A DNA stretch of 62,092 nucleotides, filler included. It is 3 parts of 3 records of this genome, joined end to end, with 100 filler letters (N's around TTAATTAATTAA, not from the genome) between each part and the next. Parts side by side here need not be neighbours in the genome. Positions count along the whole stretch, not along the records: positions 15,394 to 42,796 come from SRR20825010_3288; 2 more parts are not named here. One strand, 5' to 3'. The translations under genes and the position numbers were made by a program. Below, one piece after another: positions 32,427-41,439 of the stretch (the stretch's first letter is position 1; each line of letters begins with the position of its first letter). The notes beneath the pieces are model-generated. The model was not told where the DNA came from. It worked only from the letters and a program-made list of their open reading frames with translations, and did no database searches.

Positions 32427-33758
32427 TCAGTCGCCCCGCATTTTCAATCCGAGGTCACCCAGCTTTTCACGAACTTCGTTCAAACTGGTCACACCGAAGT
32501 TCTTGCACTCAAGCATGTCATCGCCGGTCTTGCGAATCAGCTCGCCAATGGAGTTAATTTGCAAACGGGTCATGCACTTGCGAGCACGAACGGACAAGTT
32601 GAGGTCCGCGATGGGACGTTCCAGCAACGCTTGTTCGTCGGGCGACATGTGCGAAGTGTCGACAGGCGGGTCGTTGGATTTCTTCTCGCCAGCGAACTGG
32701 CCGAGCGACAAACCTTTCTGCGACAGCATTTCGCGAATTTCGACCAAGCTGGTTTCGCCAAAGTTCTTGCTCGAGAGCAATTCTTGTTCGCTGTGGCGGG
32801 TCAAATCGCCAATCGTTTCGATGCCCATCTTCTGCAGGCAGTTGCGGCTTCGAACGCTGAGTTCGAAGTTTGCAACGGGCATGTTCAACGTTTGAGCCAA
32901 ACGATCGTTGCGACGTTGGGCTTCTTCGTCGTACAGCATGTTGCCGGTCGCCGAAGCGTCCTTCATGTACAGCTGCGTACGAGGGTGATCGGGGTGGCAA
33001 TCCAAGATTCGCTTGTAGCAAAGCTGAGCCTTGTCGTATTGCCCGTTGTCTTCGTACATCACGCCCAAGTTGATCAGGGCACCGATGCCGGTTGGGAATG
33101 CCTTGGCGGCACGCTCGTACAAACGGAGGGCTTCGTCGTCGTTGCCCAAGCGGTCGTTTTCGAGTGCCAAACCAAACAACGCACCCGCGTGGTTTTCGTC
33201 GGTCGACACGGCTCGTTGGTACAAGTTGATGGCTTCTTCCATCCGTCCACCGATCTGGGCGGCGGTTGCAGCACGCTGGTACATGTAGTCAGCGGTCTGC
33301 TCGGCGGGGCCGAAGATGTCGTCCAAGATCGCCATCGCTTCTTCGATCTTGCCTTGGTAACGCTTGGCTTCCGCGATACCAATCTTGCATTGATCTTCGT
33401 TGTATCCTGATGTCTTGGCTTGCTCGTAGCCTTCGATCGCCCCGTCGAAGTTCGACAGTTCAAACTGGCAACGGGCGTTGTAGAACAACGCCATTGCGCT
33501 GCCGTCGGCCGCGGAGAGAGTCTCCGAGGCGTCTTTGAAACGGCCCAGCATGAATTGGCAAACACCCATTTTGGTTTTGCCGGCGGGAGTCAGGGCGTCG
33601 TCCTGCTCCATTTCGTTGACCGCGTCGCGCAGTTCACCGAAGTGTCCGTAGTTTTCGGTGATCGCCTGCCGAATTTCGGCGACGTCGCTGGGGCCGAACG
33701 AGTTGCTCGCCAGAACCATTTGCTTCAGGTCGAGAACTTCGAGTTCGACTTCGCTCAT
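32427..33758 (-). CDS. TPR-repeat protein with two tandem RNA polymerase alpha-CTD domains
   Basis: TPR-like helices then LSVRSRNCL...[11 protein letters not shown] and LSVRARKCM...[11 protein letters not shown]; no alpha-NTD. Confidence 0.88.
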
Positions 33759-33956
33759 CTTCGTTTTGTCCGGGGCTAACTTCGGCTCGCTCGCACAGCG
33801 ATCCGAAAGGAGGGATAAGGAGTCAGGTGGCGATCTGCTCTGCAAAAATGTGCTCTGCAGGAACAAAAATTTGTCGAGAAAATCGACGCACAAATTGTGA
33901 TGCCAATTTTTCCCGACGCTCGGCGGCAAAAAAGTGGAAAATTTTCTGCTCGTCTA

Positions 33957-34030
33957 AGCCAGCGGCCGGATTTGAACCGGCAACCCTCGCATTACGAATG
34001 CGATGCTCTGCCAATTGAAGCTACGCTGGC
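33957..34030 (-). tRNA. tRNA-Thr (anticodon CGT), CCA not encoded
   Basis: GCCAGCGTAGCTTCAATTGGCAGAGCATCGCATTCGTAATGCGAGGGTTGCCGGTTCAAATCCGGCCGCTGGCT folds into a cloverleaf; anticodon loop TTCGTAA, T-loop TTCAAAT. Confidence 0.95.
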
Positions 34031-34602
34031 GACTTTTCCAGAGAATACGTGCGTTTGGGCCAAAACGTCAAGGGCCGTCGGGTCGGCCCAACCGGTCTCC
34101 AGAAGGCCCTGAAGTGATCCCCGCAGGTAAAAATTCCACAAAATTTTGAGACGATGAGAAAAAACTTTTTCGAATTCGCAAAAAAATTCTCTCGAAAATT
34201 TTGTGAGCGGGAGCTGGGATCGCAATTTGTGGTTCTCAAATTGCTCTACCGAAACGGACTCAAATCGGTCTCAGCAGACCACCTGATCGGTGAGCAAACC
34301 CGGACAGACCACAGTTTCGTCGACGTGGCGTGTCCTCGAGCCAGTGCACTTTTTCGCACGATCGAATCGAATTTCGCTCTCCGAAGGTGAAACCAGGCAT
34401 CGACGTGGTGTTAGAATGACGACACATCCCGCGTTGATGCTCTTGGTGACCAATGTGGCCAACTGGATGGCACCGAAACGAGCCAACGCGAACCGAAGCC
34501 GCGATACGCATCAGCGTGGACTGATGCCGGCGATGAATGAACGAATGAAACGGCCCGAGCAAATGGAATCGTTCGCAATGTCGAACGGAAGGTCTTTGAA
34601 CG

Positions 34603-34836
34603 ATGAATGTCACTGAAACGAAACCGTTGGATCAGCCAGCCGAAACGTCCGACGGTCGTCAACCGTCGCCGTCTTCACGGACGCAATCAGCTGAATCGAA
34701 CGCACCCGCGACGTCCTTTCCTGTGAAAGACGATTCAGGCAGCCTGGAATCATTCGCCTTGATGATTGGATTGGACGCCTGCGACGATGCCGCAATCTAT
34801 CTGCATCGTGCTAACACGCATCACGACGGCGAATGA
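34603..34836 (+). CDS. Candidate Pup/UBact-like small modifier protein (77 aa, ends HHDGE)
   Basis: GGAAGG SD-like site; S/P/T/E/D-rich N-terminus, short predicted helix, terminal G-E; 13 nt upstream of the PafA-family gene. Confidence 0.65.
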   Translation: MNVTETKPLDQPAETSDGRQPSPSSRTQSAESNAPATSFPVKDDSGSLESFALMIGLDACDDAAIYLHRANTHHDGE

Positions 34837-34849
34837 ACCCGGCCCCAGA

Positions 34850-36748
34850 ATGACCAGGCCTCGAACGCCCCCACCCCAGACGTCATCGCCCTCAGCCAGG
34901 ATTGCCATTCGCCAGCGTTTGTGCCGACGGTTGATGGGAATGGAAACCGAGTTCGCCACCGTCGTCGAACCTCGCGACGGTTCGTTGAGCTCCGGCGTTA
35001 CAGCTCGCGAGGTCTACGCCGGCTTGCGAGATGCGATTTGTCGCCACTTGCCGGCCGTGGAAGGACTCGATGGCGGCGATCGCCGTTTCTTGGCAAACGG
35101 CTCAGCCATCAACCTCGAGACCCATCTAGCATTTCGCGACGGACCGGGCGGGTTGTTTGAAATGGCGACCCCGGAAGTGTATTGCCCAAGTGATCTGGTC
35201 GCGTGCCAACGAGCGATCGACGAAATCATGCGAGACGCATCGAACGAGGCACGGTGGTCAGACGATCAAAACGTCGGACGACTTCGAGTTCTGAAGAACA
35301 GCTGCGACGCAGCCGGGCATCTCTATGGTTGCCAGGAAAACTACGAGACCGATGTGGCATCCGGCATTGGCTTGCTGGTCTACCGACTCGCGATCTGTTT
35401 CGTTTGGGCGTTGCAGATCGTTTGTGTGTTGATGTCATTTCCAATTGTGGTCGCGATCGTCTTTGCATCGCTGATTCAACACTCGGTTCGGCAAGCTCGA
35501 TCGATCGTTTACCGGCGCGGTGGTCGCTTTGACACACAACTGAACACCACGGACCAAGACAACGATCTGCAGTGGCACGACCATCCCGACACCAGTGATT
35601 CGGAAGAAACGTTTGTGGCACTGCCATCATGGTTTCAATGGCTTTCCATCGCCTGCCTGCGAATGCTGCACCTGCCACTGGTGTTGTCCTTGCGAGTGAT
35701 TGGGACACACATCGCATTCCGAACCCAACGTCGCCATCTGACCGGCCTGCTGGTTTCGCGAGTTGCGATCATGGGAACCGGTCACCTGGATCATGACGGC
35801 CGTTTTTTCTTGTCTGGCAAAGCGTTGGGAATCGACCGGGTCGCCGACATGGGTGGCTTCAACGGCGAGCGACCAATTTTCGTTTACGGTCACTGGTTGT
35901 CAAAGCTGTGTGGTCGTTCTTGGCGATCGATTGCCGAGACTCGTCACTTGCTCAAACGCAGACAACGTTTGCAAATTGGGTTGTCCGATTCCAACCTCAG
36001 CGATCTGGCGCAATGGGCAAAGGTTGGCAGCGTCGCGTTGGTGCTGGACATGATCGAAGCAAAGCAAACGAAGGAGCTGCCACGACTACGTCGTCCAATT
36101 CGAGCTCTGCATGTTTTCAATCGCGATTGGAATCTGCTGCGGCGAATTCCAACCAGCCACGGTGAGATGACATCGTTGGAAATGCAAACGCATTACTACC
36201 GCGCGGCGGCGAAGTTCGTCCGCGAGCAACAACAGCAATCTCGCCAAACGTCCGGTTGGGACGAAGCCGATCGGGCACTGCAACATTGGGCCGAGTCGAT
36301 TCGCTTGGTTCGCCAGTTCCGAAAAGACGGCAACCAAACGGCGCAGGGACTCGGCCGCATCGATTGGCTGGGCAAACGTTGGATGCTGGATCAAGCCGCC
36401 GGTGAGATGCCTGGTGAGAACGCATCTTGGGTGACTCGAAAGAAGATCGACCTTCGATACCACGAGTTGTCCGAAGAGGGTTACTTCGCTCGATTCATTG
36501 CTGACCACCGAGAACATGAACTGGTCGACGAAGATGACATCGAGATGCGTCGTCGCAACGCTCCGGCGGATTCACCGGCCGCCCAAAGAGGCTGGATGAT
36601 TCGTGAATTTGCGGGCGACGTTTCGGTGGCAGGCGGTCCAACCATGCGAACGGATTGGGACCGAGCCTTGGTGGGTCACGAACAAGGCGTTCGCACGGTG
36701 ATCTACGGTCAACGTGAAAGTGAACCGCGGGCCGACAAACGAAGCTAG
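34850..36748 (+). CDS. PafA/Dop-family (Pup-ligase-like, glutamine synthetase fold) protein with hydrophobic insertion
   Basis: RRLMGMETEF, FLANGS, EMATPE, KNSCD..GH.YGCQENY, LSDSNLS, KVGSVALVLDMIE, IDWLGKR, DLRYHEL, TDW match the PafA motif order. Confidence 0.88.
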   Translation: MTRPRTPPPQTSSPSARIAIRQRLCRRLMGMETEFATVVEPRDGSLSSGVTAREVYAGLRDAICRHLPAVEGLDGGDRRFLANGSAINLETHLAFRDGPGGLFEMATPEVYCPSDLVACQRAIDEIMRDASNEARWSDDQNVGRLRVLKNSCDAAGHLYGCQENYETDVASGIGLLVYRLAICFVWALQIVCVLMSFPIVVAIVFASLIQHSVRQARSIVYRRGGRFDTQLNTTDQDNDLQWHDHPDTSDSEETFVALPSWFQWLSIACLRMLHLPLVLSLRVIGTHIAFRTQRRHLTGLLVSRVAIMGTGHLDHDGRFFLSGKALGIDRVADMGGFNGERPIFVYGHWLSKLCGRSWRSIAETRHLLKRRQRLQIGLSDSNLSDLAQWAKVGSVALVLDMIEAKQTKELPRLRRPIRALHVFNRDWNLLRRIPTSHGEMTSLEMQTHYYRAAAKFVREQQQQSRQTSGWDEADRALQHWAESIRLVRQFRKDGNQTAQGLGRIDWLGKRWMLDQAAGEMPGENASWVTRKKIDLRYHELSEEGYFARFIADHREHELVDEDDIEMRRRNAPADSPAAQRGWMIREFAGDVSVAGGPTMRTDWDRALVGHEQGVRTVIYGQRESEPRADKRS

Positions 36749-36920: not shown

Positions 36921-39431
36921 ATGGGGACGACGGACACACGTACAAATCGAATTGGGAATCGGATGGGTCGTACTGAATCGTTGGATCCGGGACTTCGTGA
37001 TTTATTGTCACGACTACGCGAACGGGTGCGACGCTACATCGTTTGGGATTCGTTGCTCGCAATCGCGGCGCTGGTGCTGGTCGTGTTCTGGGTGGCACTT
37101 GCGGTCGACTATCTGCCAGTCCGAATCGGCGGCAGCGAAATGCCTCGATCGGCCCGAGCGGTCGTGCTGTTTGTTGTCGCGGTTTTGGTCGTTGTGATTC
37201 TGGCCAAATGGTTGTGGGGCCGACTCAACCGAGAACTGCCCGATGACTCATTGGCGTTGCTGATCGAACGTCACCATCCGAGCCTTGGCGGACGTTTGGT
37301 TACCGCCGTTCAATTGACTCAAGAGAATCGCACCCACGATTCACACAGCCCCGTGTTGTTGCAACACGTTCACCAGGAAGCCGCCGCTGCCGTCGACCAA
37401 GTTGAATTCGGACGTGTCTTTCGGTGGGAACCGATTCGCCGGAAGTTGATGTTGGTCATCCCGTTGTTGCTGGCCGCTTTGGTGATGGCGATCGCCAGCC
37501 CACAAACGTTCGCTCGCGCGGTCGGACGATTGTCTTTGTTTTCTGATTCACCTTGGCCACGAAAAGCTGAGCTTGAAATGATTGGCGTGGAATCGCCGAT
37601 CATCACCGCGGACGACACCGAAGAGGTCGGCACCGAACTTTTGACATTCGAGGACAAGACGCTCCGCTTGGCTCGCGGGAGCAGCACAACGCTTCGCATT
37701 CGTGCGGCAACGGAAGAACTCGGCCACACCGTTCCCGAGATCTGCACGGTTTCTTACGTCGATGATTCCGGCAACCGTGGGCAAAGCAACCTTCGCCGAG
37801 TTGGCCGCATTCAAGATGGTTATCAATCGTTTGTGCTCGACGGGCCACCGCTCGCTTCGTTGGCCGAGTCCGTGACGATGACCATTCGAGGCTTGGACGA
37901 TCGCTTGCTCGACTACCGTATCGAAGCGGTTGATCCGCCCGCGATCGCGGACATGGAATTGGCAATTCGTTATCCCGAGTACTTGCGCATCTTTAACGCC
38001 GAAGATGCATCGCCCGACGCCGCTGATCAAATCCTGAAGTACCAAGCCGGCTTCCGAATTCGCGAGGGCAGCTCGCTCACGCTTCGTGGAACCAGCAGTA
38101 AACCACTCGGTGCCGTCGATGTCGCAACGACTTCCGAAGGTGCAAGCGATGGGTCCACCGAACGTGCGGAACCTGTCGTTAAAATCGCTAACGACCGCAT
38201 GTCGTTTGAATGGTCGGTGTCCGATTTGCGAGCCCCCACCTCCGTCCGATTGGTCCCCAAAGACGAAACCGGCATTTCCGCTCAGGCATCGTATCGATAC
38301 TTCATTGGCGTCGTCCGAGACCAAGTTCCCGAGACATCGATGACGATGAAGGGCATCGGCTCGTCCATCACTCCCATCGCGATGTTGCCAATTCAAGCGA
38401 CTGCAACGGATGACTACGGCGTTGAATCGTTGAGCCTGACGATGGCGGTCCGAGCATCCGAGGAAAATGTAGACGGGGCTAGCGATGGCGAAGCGGCGGC
38501 CAATGCGGAACCACAGCAACACACCGTGTCACCCGAATTGGATCGTGACGGCAACGCCGCTTGGACGTTTGACTTGCGAGACCTTTCTGACGACGGCACC
38601 GTGAATGGGTTGGCTCCCGGAGCGAGCGTGCAAATTTTCACGACGGCCAAGGACCGGTTCGACTTGGGTGAACCACACTCGATTCGCGGCGAGGTGGTTC
38701 GTTTGCAAGTCGTGACACCAGAGACACTGCTCGCGACACTTGAGCGACGCGAACTGGAATTCCGTTCGCGGTTGGAACAAGCGATCGATGAAACCCAACG
38801 TTTGCGTCAGAGTTTGGCCGCGGTGCAAAACGACGCGTTGGATGTTTTGCAAACTCCGGATGAGGGTGAATCTGCCGAGGAATCCGCCTCGACTGGTGAC
38901 GACGAATCCGACGGCGAATCCGCTGACGACGACGGCGAGGAAGACGTCCGGGCGAGACAAAGAGTCCAACTGCGAATCCGCCAATCGGAATTGCAGGCAA
39001 CCAAATCCACGGAAGAGTTGGCGGGGATTGTCGTCGGACTCGAAGACCTGCTTCTCGAAATGGTGCAGAACCGCGTCGATTCGGTTGACCGCCGCGAACG
39101 ATTGGAAAACGGCGTCCGTAACCCATTGTCGGCGGTGGTGACGGAACCCTTGCCACGCCTGCAGCGTCAAATCACTTCGATGGAACGGGTTTTGATGGCG
39201 GAAGATTCCGCCGAATCGTCTGGGGACAAGATGACGGAAGCAGCGACCGCGGCAATCGCAACAACCGACGAAGTCCTCCTGTCGCTCAACGCCGTCTTGG
39301 AAAAGATGCTTGACCTAGAAAGTTTCAACGAAATTCTGGATTTGGTCCGAGGGTTGATCAGCGATCAGGAAGAATTGATCGAGGAAACCGAAGAAACTCG
39401 AAACCAGCAGGTCCAAGATCTGTTCAAGTAG
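36921..39431 (+). CDS. Large membrane protein, DUF4175-like Planctomycete family
   Basis: Three N-terminal TMs, LALLIERHHPSLGGRLVTAVQL, ATATDDYGV, C-terminal coiled coil. Confidence 0.75.
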   Translation: MGTTDTRTNRIGNRMGRTESLDPGLRDLLSRLRERVRRYIVWDSLLAIAALVLVVFWVALAVDYLPVRIGGSEMPRSARAVVLFVVAVLVVVILAKWLWGRLNRELPDDSLALLIERHHPSLGGRLVTAVQLTQENRTHDSHSPVLLQHVHQEAAAAVDQVEFGRVFRWEPIRRKLMLVIPLLLAALVMAIASPQTFARAVGRLSLFSDSPWPRKAELEMIGVESPIITADDTEEVGTELLTFEDKTLRLARGSSTTLRIRAATEELGHTVPEICTVSYVDDSGNRGQSNLRRVGRIQDGYQSFVLDGPPLASLAESVTMTIRGLDDRLLDYRIEAVDPPAIADMELAIRYPEYLRIFNAEDASPDAADQILKYQAGFRIREGSSLTLRGTSSKPLGAVDVATTSEGASDGSTERAEPVVKIANDRMSFEWSVSDLRAPTSVRLVPKDETGISAQASYRYFIGVVRDQVPETSMTMKGIGSSITPIAMLPIQATATDDYGVESLSLTMAVRASEENVDGASDGEAAANAEPQQHTVSPELDRDGNAAWTFDLRDLSDDGTVNGLAPGASVQIFTTAKDRFDLGEPHSIRGEVVRLQVVTPETLLATLERRELEFRSRLEQAIDETQRLRQSLAAVQNDALDVLQTPDEGESAEESASTGDDESDGESADDDGEEDVRARQRVQLRIRQSELQATKSTEELAGIVVGLEDLLLEMVQNRVDSVDRRERLENGVRNPLSAVVTEPLPRLQRQITSMERVLMAEDSAESSGDKMTEAATAAIATTDEVLLSLNAVLEKMLDLESFNEILDLVRGLISDQEELIEETEETRNQQVQDLFK

Positions 39432-39483: not shown

Positions 39484-41439
39484 GTGAACCGCGGATGGAA
39501 AGCCATTTCAATGAACGCCGATTGCATGAACCAAGCTGACCGCCCCCGCCCAGTCCTTTGGCCGATGACAAACGCACGCACTCGTTTCGCTTACTCACTC
39601 GCGTTGGCTTCGGCCGTGTTGGTGATCTCGGTCGCCCCGAAATCGTCCTTTGCTCAATCATCGACGGACGACGAAGTCACAACGCTCGCGTCACGCCAAT
39701 CCAGCGTTGCAACCCGCTACGAGCGTCTCGAAGAACTGTTGCTTCGATTGGCTGACATGGAAGCCAGCGAAAACCCGGAACGCTCAGCCCTGCTGCGACG
39801 CGTCGCCAAACAATCTCGCGAACGATTCGTGCTGGAAAAACTTCGCGGTGCCGGCAAGATGATCGGCGACGGCCAACTATCCAAAGCGATGACGGATCAG
39901 AAGTCGGCGACAGAAGAACTGCAGTCGATTCTGAAACTGTTGATGAGCGAAGACCGAAGCTCCCGAATTCGCGATGAGAAGAAACGCATTTCGGAACTCA
40001 TCAAACAACTTCGATTGACCGAGCGCAACGAACGTAGCGTCCGGGCTCGAACCGAAAACGGTGTCGAGATGAGCGAAGTCGAAAAGGAGCAGAAGGCGAT
40101 CGCCGAACGGGCTGAAGAACTTCGCAAAGAACTCGAGGAAGAATCCGACGACGCCAGCGGCGAACCATCCGAAAGCGAATCGTCAAAGAGCGAAGCACAA
40201 GAATCTAAGAACGAAAATTCCGAAAACCAATCTGGCAACAAAGGCGAGATGGAAGCGGGACGAGAGTCCGGCGAACAGAAACCTGGCGAAGAAAGCAGCG
40301 AGCAAAACGAGAACGGACAGCCGCAGGAAAACGAGCAGCCCAAAGAAAGCGGACAACAAGACGAGAACTCGCAACAGCAACCTGAAGGCGATGAGCCCAA
40401 AGAAGCTTCCGAAAATGGCGAGCAACCAGATGGTGAACCCGCCGAAGAAAAAACGGGCGAAGAGCAAGAAGAGCAAGGTGAACAGTCACCTGCCGGGGAA
40501 CAGCAATCCGAAGAAGGGCAGCAACAATCGGGCGAACAAAAGTCTGGAGAGAAGCAGTCCGGCGAACAGCAGTCGTCTTCGCAACAGCAACCACCCAAAC
40601 CGCAATCGCCTCAAGAACAGGCGAAGGAGCAGCTCGAACGCGCGATCGAGCGGATGAAAGAAGCTCAGGACAAACTCGCTCAGAACGAACGAAAAGAAGC
40701 CACCGAACAACAACGACAAGCCGAAGAAGAGTTGCGTCGCGCGATCGATCGATTGGAAAAGATCCTTCGACAACTTCGCGAAGAAGAGATGGAACGTGAA
40801 CTGGCAAAACTCGAGGCACGTTTGCGCAAAATGGCGGCGATGCAATCAGCCGTGTTGGACCAAACCGTTCAACTGGCAAAAACACCCGAAGTCCAACGCA
40901 ATCGTGCCACGGATTTGAAGGCCGGTGATTTGGCGTTCGAAGAGCAGAAGATCACGTTGGAAGCGGACCGCGCGATGCTGCTTTTGCGAGAAGAAGGCTC
41001 AAGTGTCGCGTTCCCAGAAGTCGTCTCACAATTGCGTGACGACACCGTTCGGGTCTCGACCCGGTTGGGACAAAGCAAAATCGACTTGGTCACTCAGGGT
41101 CTGCAATCCGACATCTTGGCTGGGTTGGAGGAAATGATTGCGGCATTAGCCAAAGCACAACGTGACCTGGAAAAAAAGAAACAACAGGAACAACAGGGCG
41201 ACGGTGGGGGGCAACCGTCGGGTTCTGGAGAAGAACCCCTTGTCCAGAAATTGGCCGAGTTAAAATTGATCCGCACGATGCAAACTCGCATCCAGGGCTC
41301 CACGGATCGCTATGCTAGTTTGATGGATGGCAAGGAGACTTCTGCCGAAGACGTCTTGCCATTGCTCCGCGATTTGTCGCAAAGACAAGATCGGCTTTAT
41401 CAAATCACCCGTGATTTGGTGACCGAGCGGAACAAATAG
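39484..41439 (+). CDS. Secreted coiled-coil protein with E/Q/S-rich low-complexity linker (start probably 39511-39565)
   Basis: Signal-like segment ending SSFA; heptad helices flanking GEQ[QK]S repeats. Confidence 0.75.
   Translation: MNRGWKAISMNADCMNQADRPRPVLWPMTNARTRFAYSLALASAVLVISVAPKSSFAQSSTDDEVTTLASRQSSVATRYERLEELLLRLADMEASENPERSALLRRVAKQSRERFVLEKLRGAGKMIGDGQLSKAMTDQKSATEELQSILKLLMSEDRSSRIRDEKKRISELIKQLRLTERNERSVRARTENGVEMSEVEKEQKAIAERAEELRKELEEESDDASGEPSESESSKSEAQESKNENSENQSGNKGEMEAGRESGEQKPGEESSEQNENGQPQENEQPKESGQQDENSQQQPEGDEPKEASENGEQPDGEPAEEKTGEEQEEQGEQSPAGEQQSEEGQQQSGEQKSGEKQSGEQQSSSQQQPPKPQSPQEQAKEQLERAIERMKEAQDKLAQNERKEATEQQRQAEEELRRAIDRLEKILRQLREEEMERELAKLEARLRKMAAMQSAVLDQTVQLAKTPEVQRNRATDLKAGDLAFEEQKITLEADRAMLLLREEGSSVAFPEVVSQLRDDTVRVSTRLGQSKIDLVTQGLQSDILAGLEEMIAALAKAQRDLEKKKQQEQQGDGGGQPSGSGEEPLVQKLAELKLIRTMQTRIQGSTDRYASLMDGKETSAEDVLPLLRDLSQRQDRLYQITRDLVTERNK

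Follow-up and report, generated by a model that had tools for sequence, protein, structure and literature searches.

The stretch of DNA analysed here (the window) is 62,092 nucleotides (nt) long, filler included, and consists of three parts from three records of one genome. On its plus strand it carries two adjacent genes, one for a small Pup-like modifier (the tag) and one for a membrane-inserted enzyme of the PafA/Dop family that is presumed to be the tag's ligase. The tag gene (34603..34836, stop included) is an open reading frame (ORF) of 77 codons that begins with an ATG at 34603 and stops with a TGA at 34834-34836. Its product has the C-terminal end ...IYLHRANTHHDGE and therefore closes in D-G-E. 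The 77-amino-acid (aa) protein is acidic (13 acidic versus 5 basic residues; calculated pI 4.5), and Ser, Pro and Thr together make up 29% of it. A Shine-Dalgarno (SD)-like GGAAGG lies 10 nt before the ATG, which is rather distant for such a site. A spacer of exactly 13 nt (34837..34849; ACCCGGCCCCAGA) leads to the ligase gene (34850..36748, plus strand, stop included), the frame of which runs from an ATG at 34850 to a stop at 36746-36748 and encodes 632 aa. An earlier note on this DNA had reported the small acidic, Ser/Pro/Thr-rich ORF with an SD-like site 13 nt upstream of the larger gene, and its coordinates, composition and spacer are all confirmed. The locus is best explained as the Rhodopirellula version of a proteasome-independent, membrane-anchored Pup-like tagging system.

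Conservation of the tag gene

Ligase homologues were sampled across 301 genomes of the same order. They occur in 22 genomes, comprising 16 of 33 in the same family and 5 of 13 and 1 of 12 in two other families, with none elsewhere. The DNA upstream of each homologue was searched for any frame of at least 20 codons ending in G-[EQ], with no further demand. An ORF ending in G-E precedes 19 of the 22 ligase genes under this single demand, which bears out the conservation that the earlier note had proposed to look for. The 19 linked tags have a common block (alignment A1), in which a hydrophobic stretch is followed by an Asp, and Tyr-Leu or a similar pair stands seven residues beyond the Asp. Exactly ten residues follow the Tyr-Leu in these tags, and the last two are Gly-Glu. 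A1 shows almost no variation at D58, Y66 and L67 and none at G76 and E77. Overall identity between tags of different genera is 15-30%, with the C-terminal block fixed. In the window this block corresponds to residues 48-77 (34744..34833, plus strand) and contains the hydrophobic stretch, Asp58, Tyr66-Leu67 and Gly76-Glu77.

A profile made from A1 located a tag gene on other contigs of two further ligase-bearing genomes, G264 (E 2.2e-5) and G274 (E 4.0e-5), and both of these tags end in ...NTG[HY]DGE. The tag is thus present in 21 of the 22 ligase-bearing genomes, 19 linked and 2 on another contig. Its retention in these genomes excludes a chance ORF, and the sequence comparisons identify the small ORF as a real gene that forms a conserved two-gene module with the ligase. 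The conjugation module suggested by the earlier note therefore stands as far as the pair is concerned, which is real and conserved; its other part, conjugation to lysines, is something that we infer. The sole ligase-bearing genome without a tag is G279 (1/22), in which the best profile match has an E of 0.2. Its ligase (L030 / L021) is an open frame of 601 aa with Q-I-T-A-E where all others have G-h-E-T-E. The missing tag and the degenerate ATP-binding motif suggest that the tag and the active enzyme may have been lost together in this genome.

In one ligase-bearing genome (G155, L019; genome 87% complete), the ligase frame shifts after about residue 118, through either a frameshift or an assembly error. 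The tag gene upstream of it is intact.

The distribution of the pair was extended with a scan of one genome per species across 185,579 species, which gave 271 stretches encoding a ligase relative; the best 80 of the 271 were used. Among these 80, the closest ligases in named records are those of Rhodopirellula europaea 6C (93%) and a Rhodopirellula metagenome-assembled genome (78%), and the next, at 39-48%, are from Rubripirellula, Stieleria, Novipirellula, Roseiconus and Roseimaritima. Sequence similarity assigns the window locus to Rhodopirellula, in the baltica group. A pattern search found a linked tag gene in 22 of the best 80 loci, 5 loci having less than 300 nt of upstream DNA. A FastTree phylogeny built from 95 ligases, after removal of 6 short rows, groups the loci that lack a linked tag into one 52-row clade (Rubripirellula, Stieleria and Novipirellula; L025, L004, L048-L100), which has local support of 99. 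No linked tag was found for 50 of the 52 rows within 408-2500 nt upstream, the other 2 being rows without upstream data. The linked or unlinked state requires a minimum of 3 changes over the whole ligase tree.

Loss of linkage did not entail loss of the tag. A profile from a larger tag alignment (A4) gave exactly one match per genome in five large genomes of the 52-row clade (E 2e-10 to 4.4e-6), and in all five chromosomes tested the unlinked tag gene lies 1.1 to 7.4 Mb from the ligase gene. With G264 and G274, all 7 genomes tested from the clade that lacks a linked tag have exactly one significant profile match, indicating that the tag gene need not adjoin the ligase. The unlinked tag genes (L033:1483-1653, L034:1501-1716 and L126-L130) adjoin unrelated genes that are, by translation, aminotransferase- or HisA-like. 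Four of the five tags from these chromosomes were translated, and all four end in D-G-E. The same ending occurs in the window, in its nearest genome (G001), in two Rhodopirellula loci, in four further linked loci and in two Rubripirellula-type genomes. D-G-E is therefore the norm of the window's clade, not a peculiarity of the window. By this comparison the variant ending postulated by the earlier note is genuine and a clade trait. Across 42 aligned tags the third-from-last residue is G in 20, D in 9, Q in 3, E in 3, N in 2, S in 2, and H, Y and V in 1 each. The terminal G-E is present in all 42, many of these rows having been chosen by that ending.

No model in Pfam or NCBIfam picks out the tag. 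None of 20 tags matched Pfam or NCBIfam at E up to 1, and the window tag had no match at E up to 10. A search of PDB sequences with the tag profile at E up to 10 returned no Pup chain; the sole match, to a plasmid stabilisation protein (E 0.28), is at chance level. In the ESM Atlas the tag gave scores of 0.85 to unnamed clusters, which is below the meaningful level. At E up to 0.001, databases contain 41 tag relatives. None of the 41 carries a Pfam domain, and those with a name are all 'hypothetical protein'. They include a 77-aa 'hypothetical protein' of Rhodopirellula baltica that is 91% identical to the window tag, and another that is 95% identical. Since the R. baltica tag is on record, gene callers evidently find the tag and cannot name it, contrary to the expectation of the earlier note that they would miss the ORF.

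Strain contigs from three runs span the tag ORF and represent two distinct sequence forms, two of the contigs sharing the differences listed. There are at least 10 differences inside the ORF among the three contigs, about half of those listed being synonymous, and all of the listed differences lie before 34760. These differences are too few for a test of selection. A 331-nt contig over 34847-35177 comes from a run that is only guessed to be RNA and was counted as evidence neither for nor against expression. In a related strain (run X5), a 15-nt insertion at 34473, upstream of the tag gene, repeats the adjacent bases.

The enzyme and its predicted contact with the tag

The larger gene encodes a member of the PafA/Dop family, as the earlier note had read from its motifs. 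The protein matches the Pfam Pup_ligase model (PF03136) practically end to end, with 273.4 bits and E 4.8e-81, and residues 27-604 align with profile positions 1-438 of 441. The AlphaFold2 (AF2) model of the enzyme has a predicted local distance difference test score (pLDDT) of 85.4 and a predicted template modelling score (pTM) of 0.86. Dop and PafA are its top structural matches (E 3e-22 to 2e-15); YbdK and glutamate-cysteine ligases follow far behind. In an alignment of 20 ligase orthologues (A3), 39 columns are invariant, including G30, E32, E34, E90, E104, E109, E163, R304 and D380-S381. The nucleotide-binding motif G-h-E-x-E is kept as G30-M-E32-T-E34 (34937..34951, plus strand) and is invariant in 20 of 20 orthologues. 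Hecht et al. 2020 give it as the ATP-binding motif of the PafA/Dop family.

The position of the catalytic Asp of PafA and Dop is occupied by Glu90 (codon 35117..35119, plus strand). In the profile alignment this residue, invariant in A3, falls opposite D64 of Corynebacterium glutamicum PafA (4b0t), and the residues flanking D64 are the neighbours of the catalytic Asp in Table 1 of Hecht et al. 2020. The loop after Glu90 is six residues longer than in PafA, and the D64-V-G-S pattern of PafA is absent.

The catalytic domain is interrupted by a hydrophobic insert (about residues 170-300; 35357..35749, plus strand), identified from the profile alignment and the AF2 model. Dop and PafA have nothing that corresponds to the insert, which takes up about 105 profile positions (137 to 242) between a Q-E-N-Y-E strand and an F-L-x-S-R helix. 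Each of the 20 orthologues shows a minimum of two hydrophobic peaks in it. The window enzyme has two hydrophobic stretches here, at residues 170-210 and 255-297, separated by an Arg-rich loop. In the AF2 model, a disordered loop at 227-255 lies between helices at 172-224 and 260-288. The insert is presumed to be a membrane anchor that would consist of two or four spans. The conserved insert and the predicted structure agree with the association of the enzyme with the membrane proposed by the earlier note.

Contact between the tag and the enzyme was predicted by co-folding the two proteins with ESMFold2, run on single sequences without alignments. The pair scored 0.73 in three of three runs, and the best of three controls scored 0.00. 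Of 78 solved complexes, 51 attained this mark of 0.73, as did 2 of 108 mismatched pairs. At least 58% of contacts recur between runs, and the tag has a pLDDT of at least 49 (49-50). The confident interface joins tag residues 48-71 to enzyme residues 36-48, 148-154 and 498-552. Segments 36-48 and 148-154 are strands near the active site. Residues 498-552 (36341..36505, plus strand), which include K-K-I-D-L-R-Y-H-E-L, form the predicted tag-holding region, in which A3 shows K532, D534, L540 and Y545 to be invariant. The confident contacts do not extend to the last six residues of the tag. The model supports binding of the tag to the enzyme through its conserved block, in the Pup-binding region. 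This is the expected face of the enzyme; the earlier note had suggested such a co-fold. As complexes of PafA and of Dop with Pup have been solved (4bjr and 7oxy), the pass may reflect likeness to these complexes.

Gene content was read in the nearest genome, G001 (one contig, 7.1 Mb, 99% complete), rather than in the source genome. G001 has the same locus and neighbours, and its ligase is 99% identical to that of the window. The proteasome, Mpa and a second PafA/Dop paralogue, for which the earlier note had recommended a genome search, were not detected in G001. There is 1 Pup_ligase match in G001 and there are 0 matches to PF00227, the window itself not having been scanned ORF by ORF for the latter, indicating that G001 has neither a 20S proteasome nor HslV. 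No Mpa/ARC was detected in G001: the best match to TIGR03689 reached 151.6 bits against a cut-off of 504.75 and involved the AAA module only. Matches limited to the AAA module were also obtained in E. coli and other controls, and C. glutamicum was the sole control above the cut-off.

Five other Pirellulaceae genomes (G315, G322, G325, G334 and G350) each have two to four Pup_ligase-family matches, and G315 has two full-length copies in one chromosome. Some of the extra copies match only from about profile position 60-70 and lie in longer frames (530-828 aa). The extra copies may be paralogues of another kind.

Interpretation as a probable membrane tagging system

A system of this type was predicted computationally by Iyer, Burroughs and Aravind in 2008 (Biol Direct 3:45; PMC2588565) for Rhodopirellula baltica and Plesiocystis pacifica. 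The earlier note had mentioned a comparative-genomics prediction of membrane-protein pupylation in planctomycetes. The paper describes an unannotated Pup orthologue ending in G-[EQ] in Rhodopirellula and a Pup ligase in which an insertion of four transmembrane (TM) segments follows core strand 4; a membrane-protein gene is linked, whereas genes of the proteasome are not. It proposes pupylation of membrane-associated proteins for regulation and states that Pup always neighbours PafA. Compared by this description, the pair in the window shows no essential difference from the predicted one. The genus is the same, a small ORF ending in G-[EQ] lies beside the ligase, the insert follows core strand 4 (Q-E-N-Y-E), there is no linkage to a proteasome, a membrane-protein gene lies downstream, and the tag of 77 aa falls within the range of 50-90 aa. 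A difference is found in the 52-row sister clade, in which the tag gene lies away from the ligase, whereas the paper has Pup as a constant neighbour. The system is thus already known, and the present locus is a rediscovery of it. The new points are modest: a clade-wide D-G-E ending, unlinked but retained tags, apparent joint loss in one genome, Glu in place of the catalytic Asp, and the absence of a family model for the tag. A literature search, with most subscription journals outside its range, found no experimental study of the planctomycete system.

The reading that we favour, with a probability of about 0.68, is that the terminal Glu of the tag is joined in an ATP-dependent manner to lysines of membrane-located proteins, by one enzyme, distinct from both PafA and Dop, and without a downstream proteasome. 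The 77-aa protein would be an acidic, largely disordered tag. Its block at about residues 48-71 would dock on the C-terminal domain of the enzyme, and the free terminal Glu would reach the active site. The hydrophobic insert would hold the enzyme at the cytoplasmic face of the membrane. There, the enzyme would use ATP to activate the terminal Glu at its gamma-carboxylate and would join the Glu to lysine side chains nearby, the acceptors probably being membrane or membrane-associated proteins. No deamidase would be needed since the tag already ends in Glu, a point that the earlier note had also made. With neither a proteasome nor Mpa present, the most likely effect of the tag is to regulate or mark its targets, not to deliver them to a 20S proteasome. 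We infer the ligase rather than hydrolase activity, the lysine acceptor, the membrane-protein targets and the consequence of tagging. The expected tryptic remnant on a modified amine is ANTHHDGE, with a calculated mass of +861.34 Da.

Several observations weigh against this reading. No Pup model matches the tag, and the case for its homology to Pup is made by the 2008 paper and by analogy. Many rows of A4 were picked by a pattern demanding an aromatic residue and a G-[EQ] ending, and the invariance of both in that alignment is therefore partly by construction. The support that is independent of the pattern comes from the 19 linked ORFs, for which G-[EQ] alone was demanded, and from the profile matches. 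In the insert, the AF2 model runs its first helix unbroken over 53 residues, although a model with four TM segments would need a turn there, and the first hydrophobic stretch contains Arg179, which is nearly invariant. The enzyme scored 124.5 bits with the PafA equivalog model (TIGR03686), under the cut-off of 551.3, and is not a PafA orthologue. It is nearer to Dop than to PafA in both sequence and fold. The family profile scored 228.8 bits with Dop (4b0r) and 173 bits with PafA (4b0t), and the AF2 model matched Dop (4b0r) first, with a TM-score of 0.82 on the target, and PafA (4bjr) with 0.73. In Hecht et al. 2020, the single-copy planctomycete homologue is an outgroup to PafA and Dop, with 29-31% identity to each. 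Finally, two Thr of the alpha-loop that are kept by both PafA and Dop are not conserved in this enzyme family according to the profile alignment. Together with the Glu in place of the catalytic Asp and the six-residue insertion, this indicates that the chemistry may differ.

The claim of the earlier note that the enzyme is PafA-like rather than Dop-like is not upheld by these scores. The match to the Dop equivalog model (TIGR03688; 110.8 bits) is also under its cut-off (492.3), and by sequence the enzyme is neither PafA nor Dop, being a single-copy relative of both. Assignment to one or the other from the residues by which Hecht et al. 2020 tell ligases and hydrolases apart was attempted and rejected, the outcome being mixed and dependent on the alignment. 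In that alignment Phe80, Ala106, Thr107 and Asp602 are PafA-like, and Pro108 and a Gly-Leu in the alpha-loop are Dop-like. It is nonetheless conceivable, if unlikely, that the enzyme is mainly or only a hydrolase of the Dop amidase type, or that one enzyme of ancestral type serves as both writer and eraser. The closeness to Dop, the Dop-like residues and the single-copy position outside both the PafA and the Dop clade are in line with this, and Hecht et al. 2020 report that a limited set of substitutions switches between ligase and hydrolase activity. A pure hydrolase would, however, be left without a substrate in G001, which has one family member, and the tag ends in Glu, not Gln. The PafA-like residues also argue against it, and a bifunctional enzyme would be compatible with ligation of the tag by this enzyme.

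Other alternatives concern the fate of the tag. It may bind the enzyme and never be conjugated, acting as a regulator, as an assembly factor, or as a scaffold with a modified C-terminal Glu. The co-fold speaks to binding only and not to transfer, the last six residues of the tag are outside its confident contacts, and the third-from-last residue varies freely among G, D, Q, E, N, S, H, Y and V. Nevertheless, this is improbable given that the G-E stands at the very C-terminus in 19 of 19 linked ORFs found by G-[EQ] alone, that every profile match reaches the last profile position, and that the six unlinked ORFs translated end there. Ligases of this family require a donor with a free gamma-carboxylate at the extreme end of the chain. 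Still less probable is an acceptor that is a small or lipid amine, such as phosphatidylethanolamine or the head group of an ornithine lipid, with the tag anchored to lipid like eukaryotic Atg8. Planctomycetes are bacteria with elaborate internal membranes. In its full form, in which the terminal Glu is joined to an amine lipid by a single Glu-for-Asp enzyme that is both writer and eraser, this would give planctomycetes a counterpart of Atg8/LC3, and we regard it as a long shot. The enzyme family is one of carboxylate-amine ligases, most of which act on small amines, and YbdK and the glutamate-cysteine ligases come next after Dop and PafA in the fold comparison. The membrane insert sits within the catalytic domain in all 20 orthologues, the active-site base and alpha-loop are unlike those of both PafA and Dop, and G001 has no reader of a protein tag such as Mpa or a proteasome. 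Against this, the nearest characterised relatives all act on protein lysines, and the 2008 paper takes the insert to be no more than an anchor. That the 77-codon ORF is only a chance open frame in the ligase leader is hardly credible. The ORF has no family match, its SD-like site is 10 nt from the ATG, and a promoter/terminator scan gave results at chance level. However, the peptide is conserved across genera with its fixed C-terminal block, and a separate tag gene is kept megabases from the ligase in the five chromosomes tested. With 19 of 22 linked ORFs, the profile matches and the retention of unlinked genes, the chance-ORF explanation is refuted for practical purposes.

The proposed membrane tagging system resembles the actinobacterial Pup-proteasome system, for example that of Mycobacterium tuberculosis, in the fold of the enzyme, the G-h-E-x-E motif, a small acidic tag ending in G-[EQ], and the predicted position of the tag on the C-terminal domain of the enzyme. 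Like Pup, the tag is small, has a C-terminal G-[EQ], and is encoded next to a PafA/Dop homologue. The planctomycete system differs in having one enzyme rather than PafA and Dop and, in G001, neither Mpa nor a 20S proteasome. The enzyme is inserted in the membrane by prediction and has a Glu for the catalytic Asp, and the tag is unmatched by Pup models and ends in D-G-E rather than G-G-Q/E. A role equivalent to that of Dop is set apart by the lack of a separate ligase in G001 and by the tag ending in Glu, not Gln. C. glutamicum is similar in having a Pup_ligase match without a PF00227 match. Pupylation in this organism operates without a 20S proteasome, with Dop and a soluble PafA, and has a role in ferritin and iron homeostasis. 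Unlike G001, C. glutamicum keeps an Mpa/ARC-type ATPase above the TIGR03689 cut-off. UBact, said to have been described by Lehmann et al. in 2017 in Nitrospirae, Verrucomicrobia and other Gram-negative phyla, is reportedly encoded in an operon with Mpa, Dop, PafA and the proteasome and reportedly ends in R-[TS]-G-[EQ]. It is likewise a small Pup-like tag outside Actinobacteria that ends in G-[EQ]. However, apart from one family enzyme, the genes reported for that operon are not above cut-off in G001, and the ending here is H-D-G-E. The label UBact-like used by the earlier note thus fits neither the context nor the reported ending.

If the system works as proposed, it would be a minimal ubiquitin-like tagging machine consisting of one tag and one enzyme. 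Action at the membrane without a proteasome would imply that the tag must mean something other than 'degrade by 20S proteasome'. The position of the enzyme outside both PafA and Dop indicates that it may show the activity of the ancestral pupylation enzyme. The prediction has been standing since 2008. The present results add to it, for work at the bench, the exact tag sequences including those of unlinked genes, the docking block, the Glu at the catalytic position and the tryptic remnant. Annotation pipelines have no model for this tag family.

Neighbouring genes and related genomes

No gene neighbouring the ligase is conserved across clades. Downstream of the ligase, a gene at 36921..39431 (plus strand) encodes an 836-aa protein with N-terminal hydrophobic segments and no Pfam match. 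This membrane-protein gene is linked to the ligase only in Rhodopirellula, namely in the window, in G001 and in 2 of the 80 named loci. It is followed by a gene (39484..41439, plus strand) for a 651-aa protein, also without a Pfam match, that has a long acidic stretch rich in Glu, Gln and Ser and coiled-coil-like ends. In the Rubripirellula-type clade, the ligase follows a gene that is ribH-like by translation.

Matches to PF00227 were also counted in 61 genomes of the family. A single match was present in 47 of the 61, in a frame of about 112-331 codons, mostly 182-260, and these single matches look like HslV. PF00227 matches were absent from 10 of 30 ligase-positive and 4 of 31 ligase-negative genomes. 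The genomes are related and the effect is modest, so these counts give only a hint of an inverse relation between the ligase and PF00227, from which no conclusion is drawn.

Upstream of the tag gene and on the opposite strand lies a gene for tRNA-Thr (CGT) at 33957..34030. It stands between the tag gene and a gene at 32427..33929 (minus strand) that encodes a 500-aa protein with tetratricopeptide (TPR) repeats and two C-terminal copies of the RNA polymerase alpha-CTD (PF03118, E 1.5e-44). The combination of TPR repeats with a doubled alpha-CTD in one protein is an unusual architecture.

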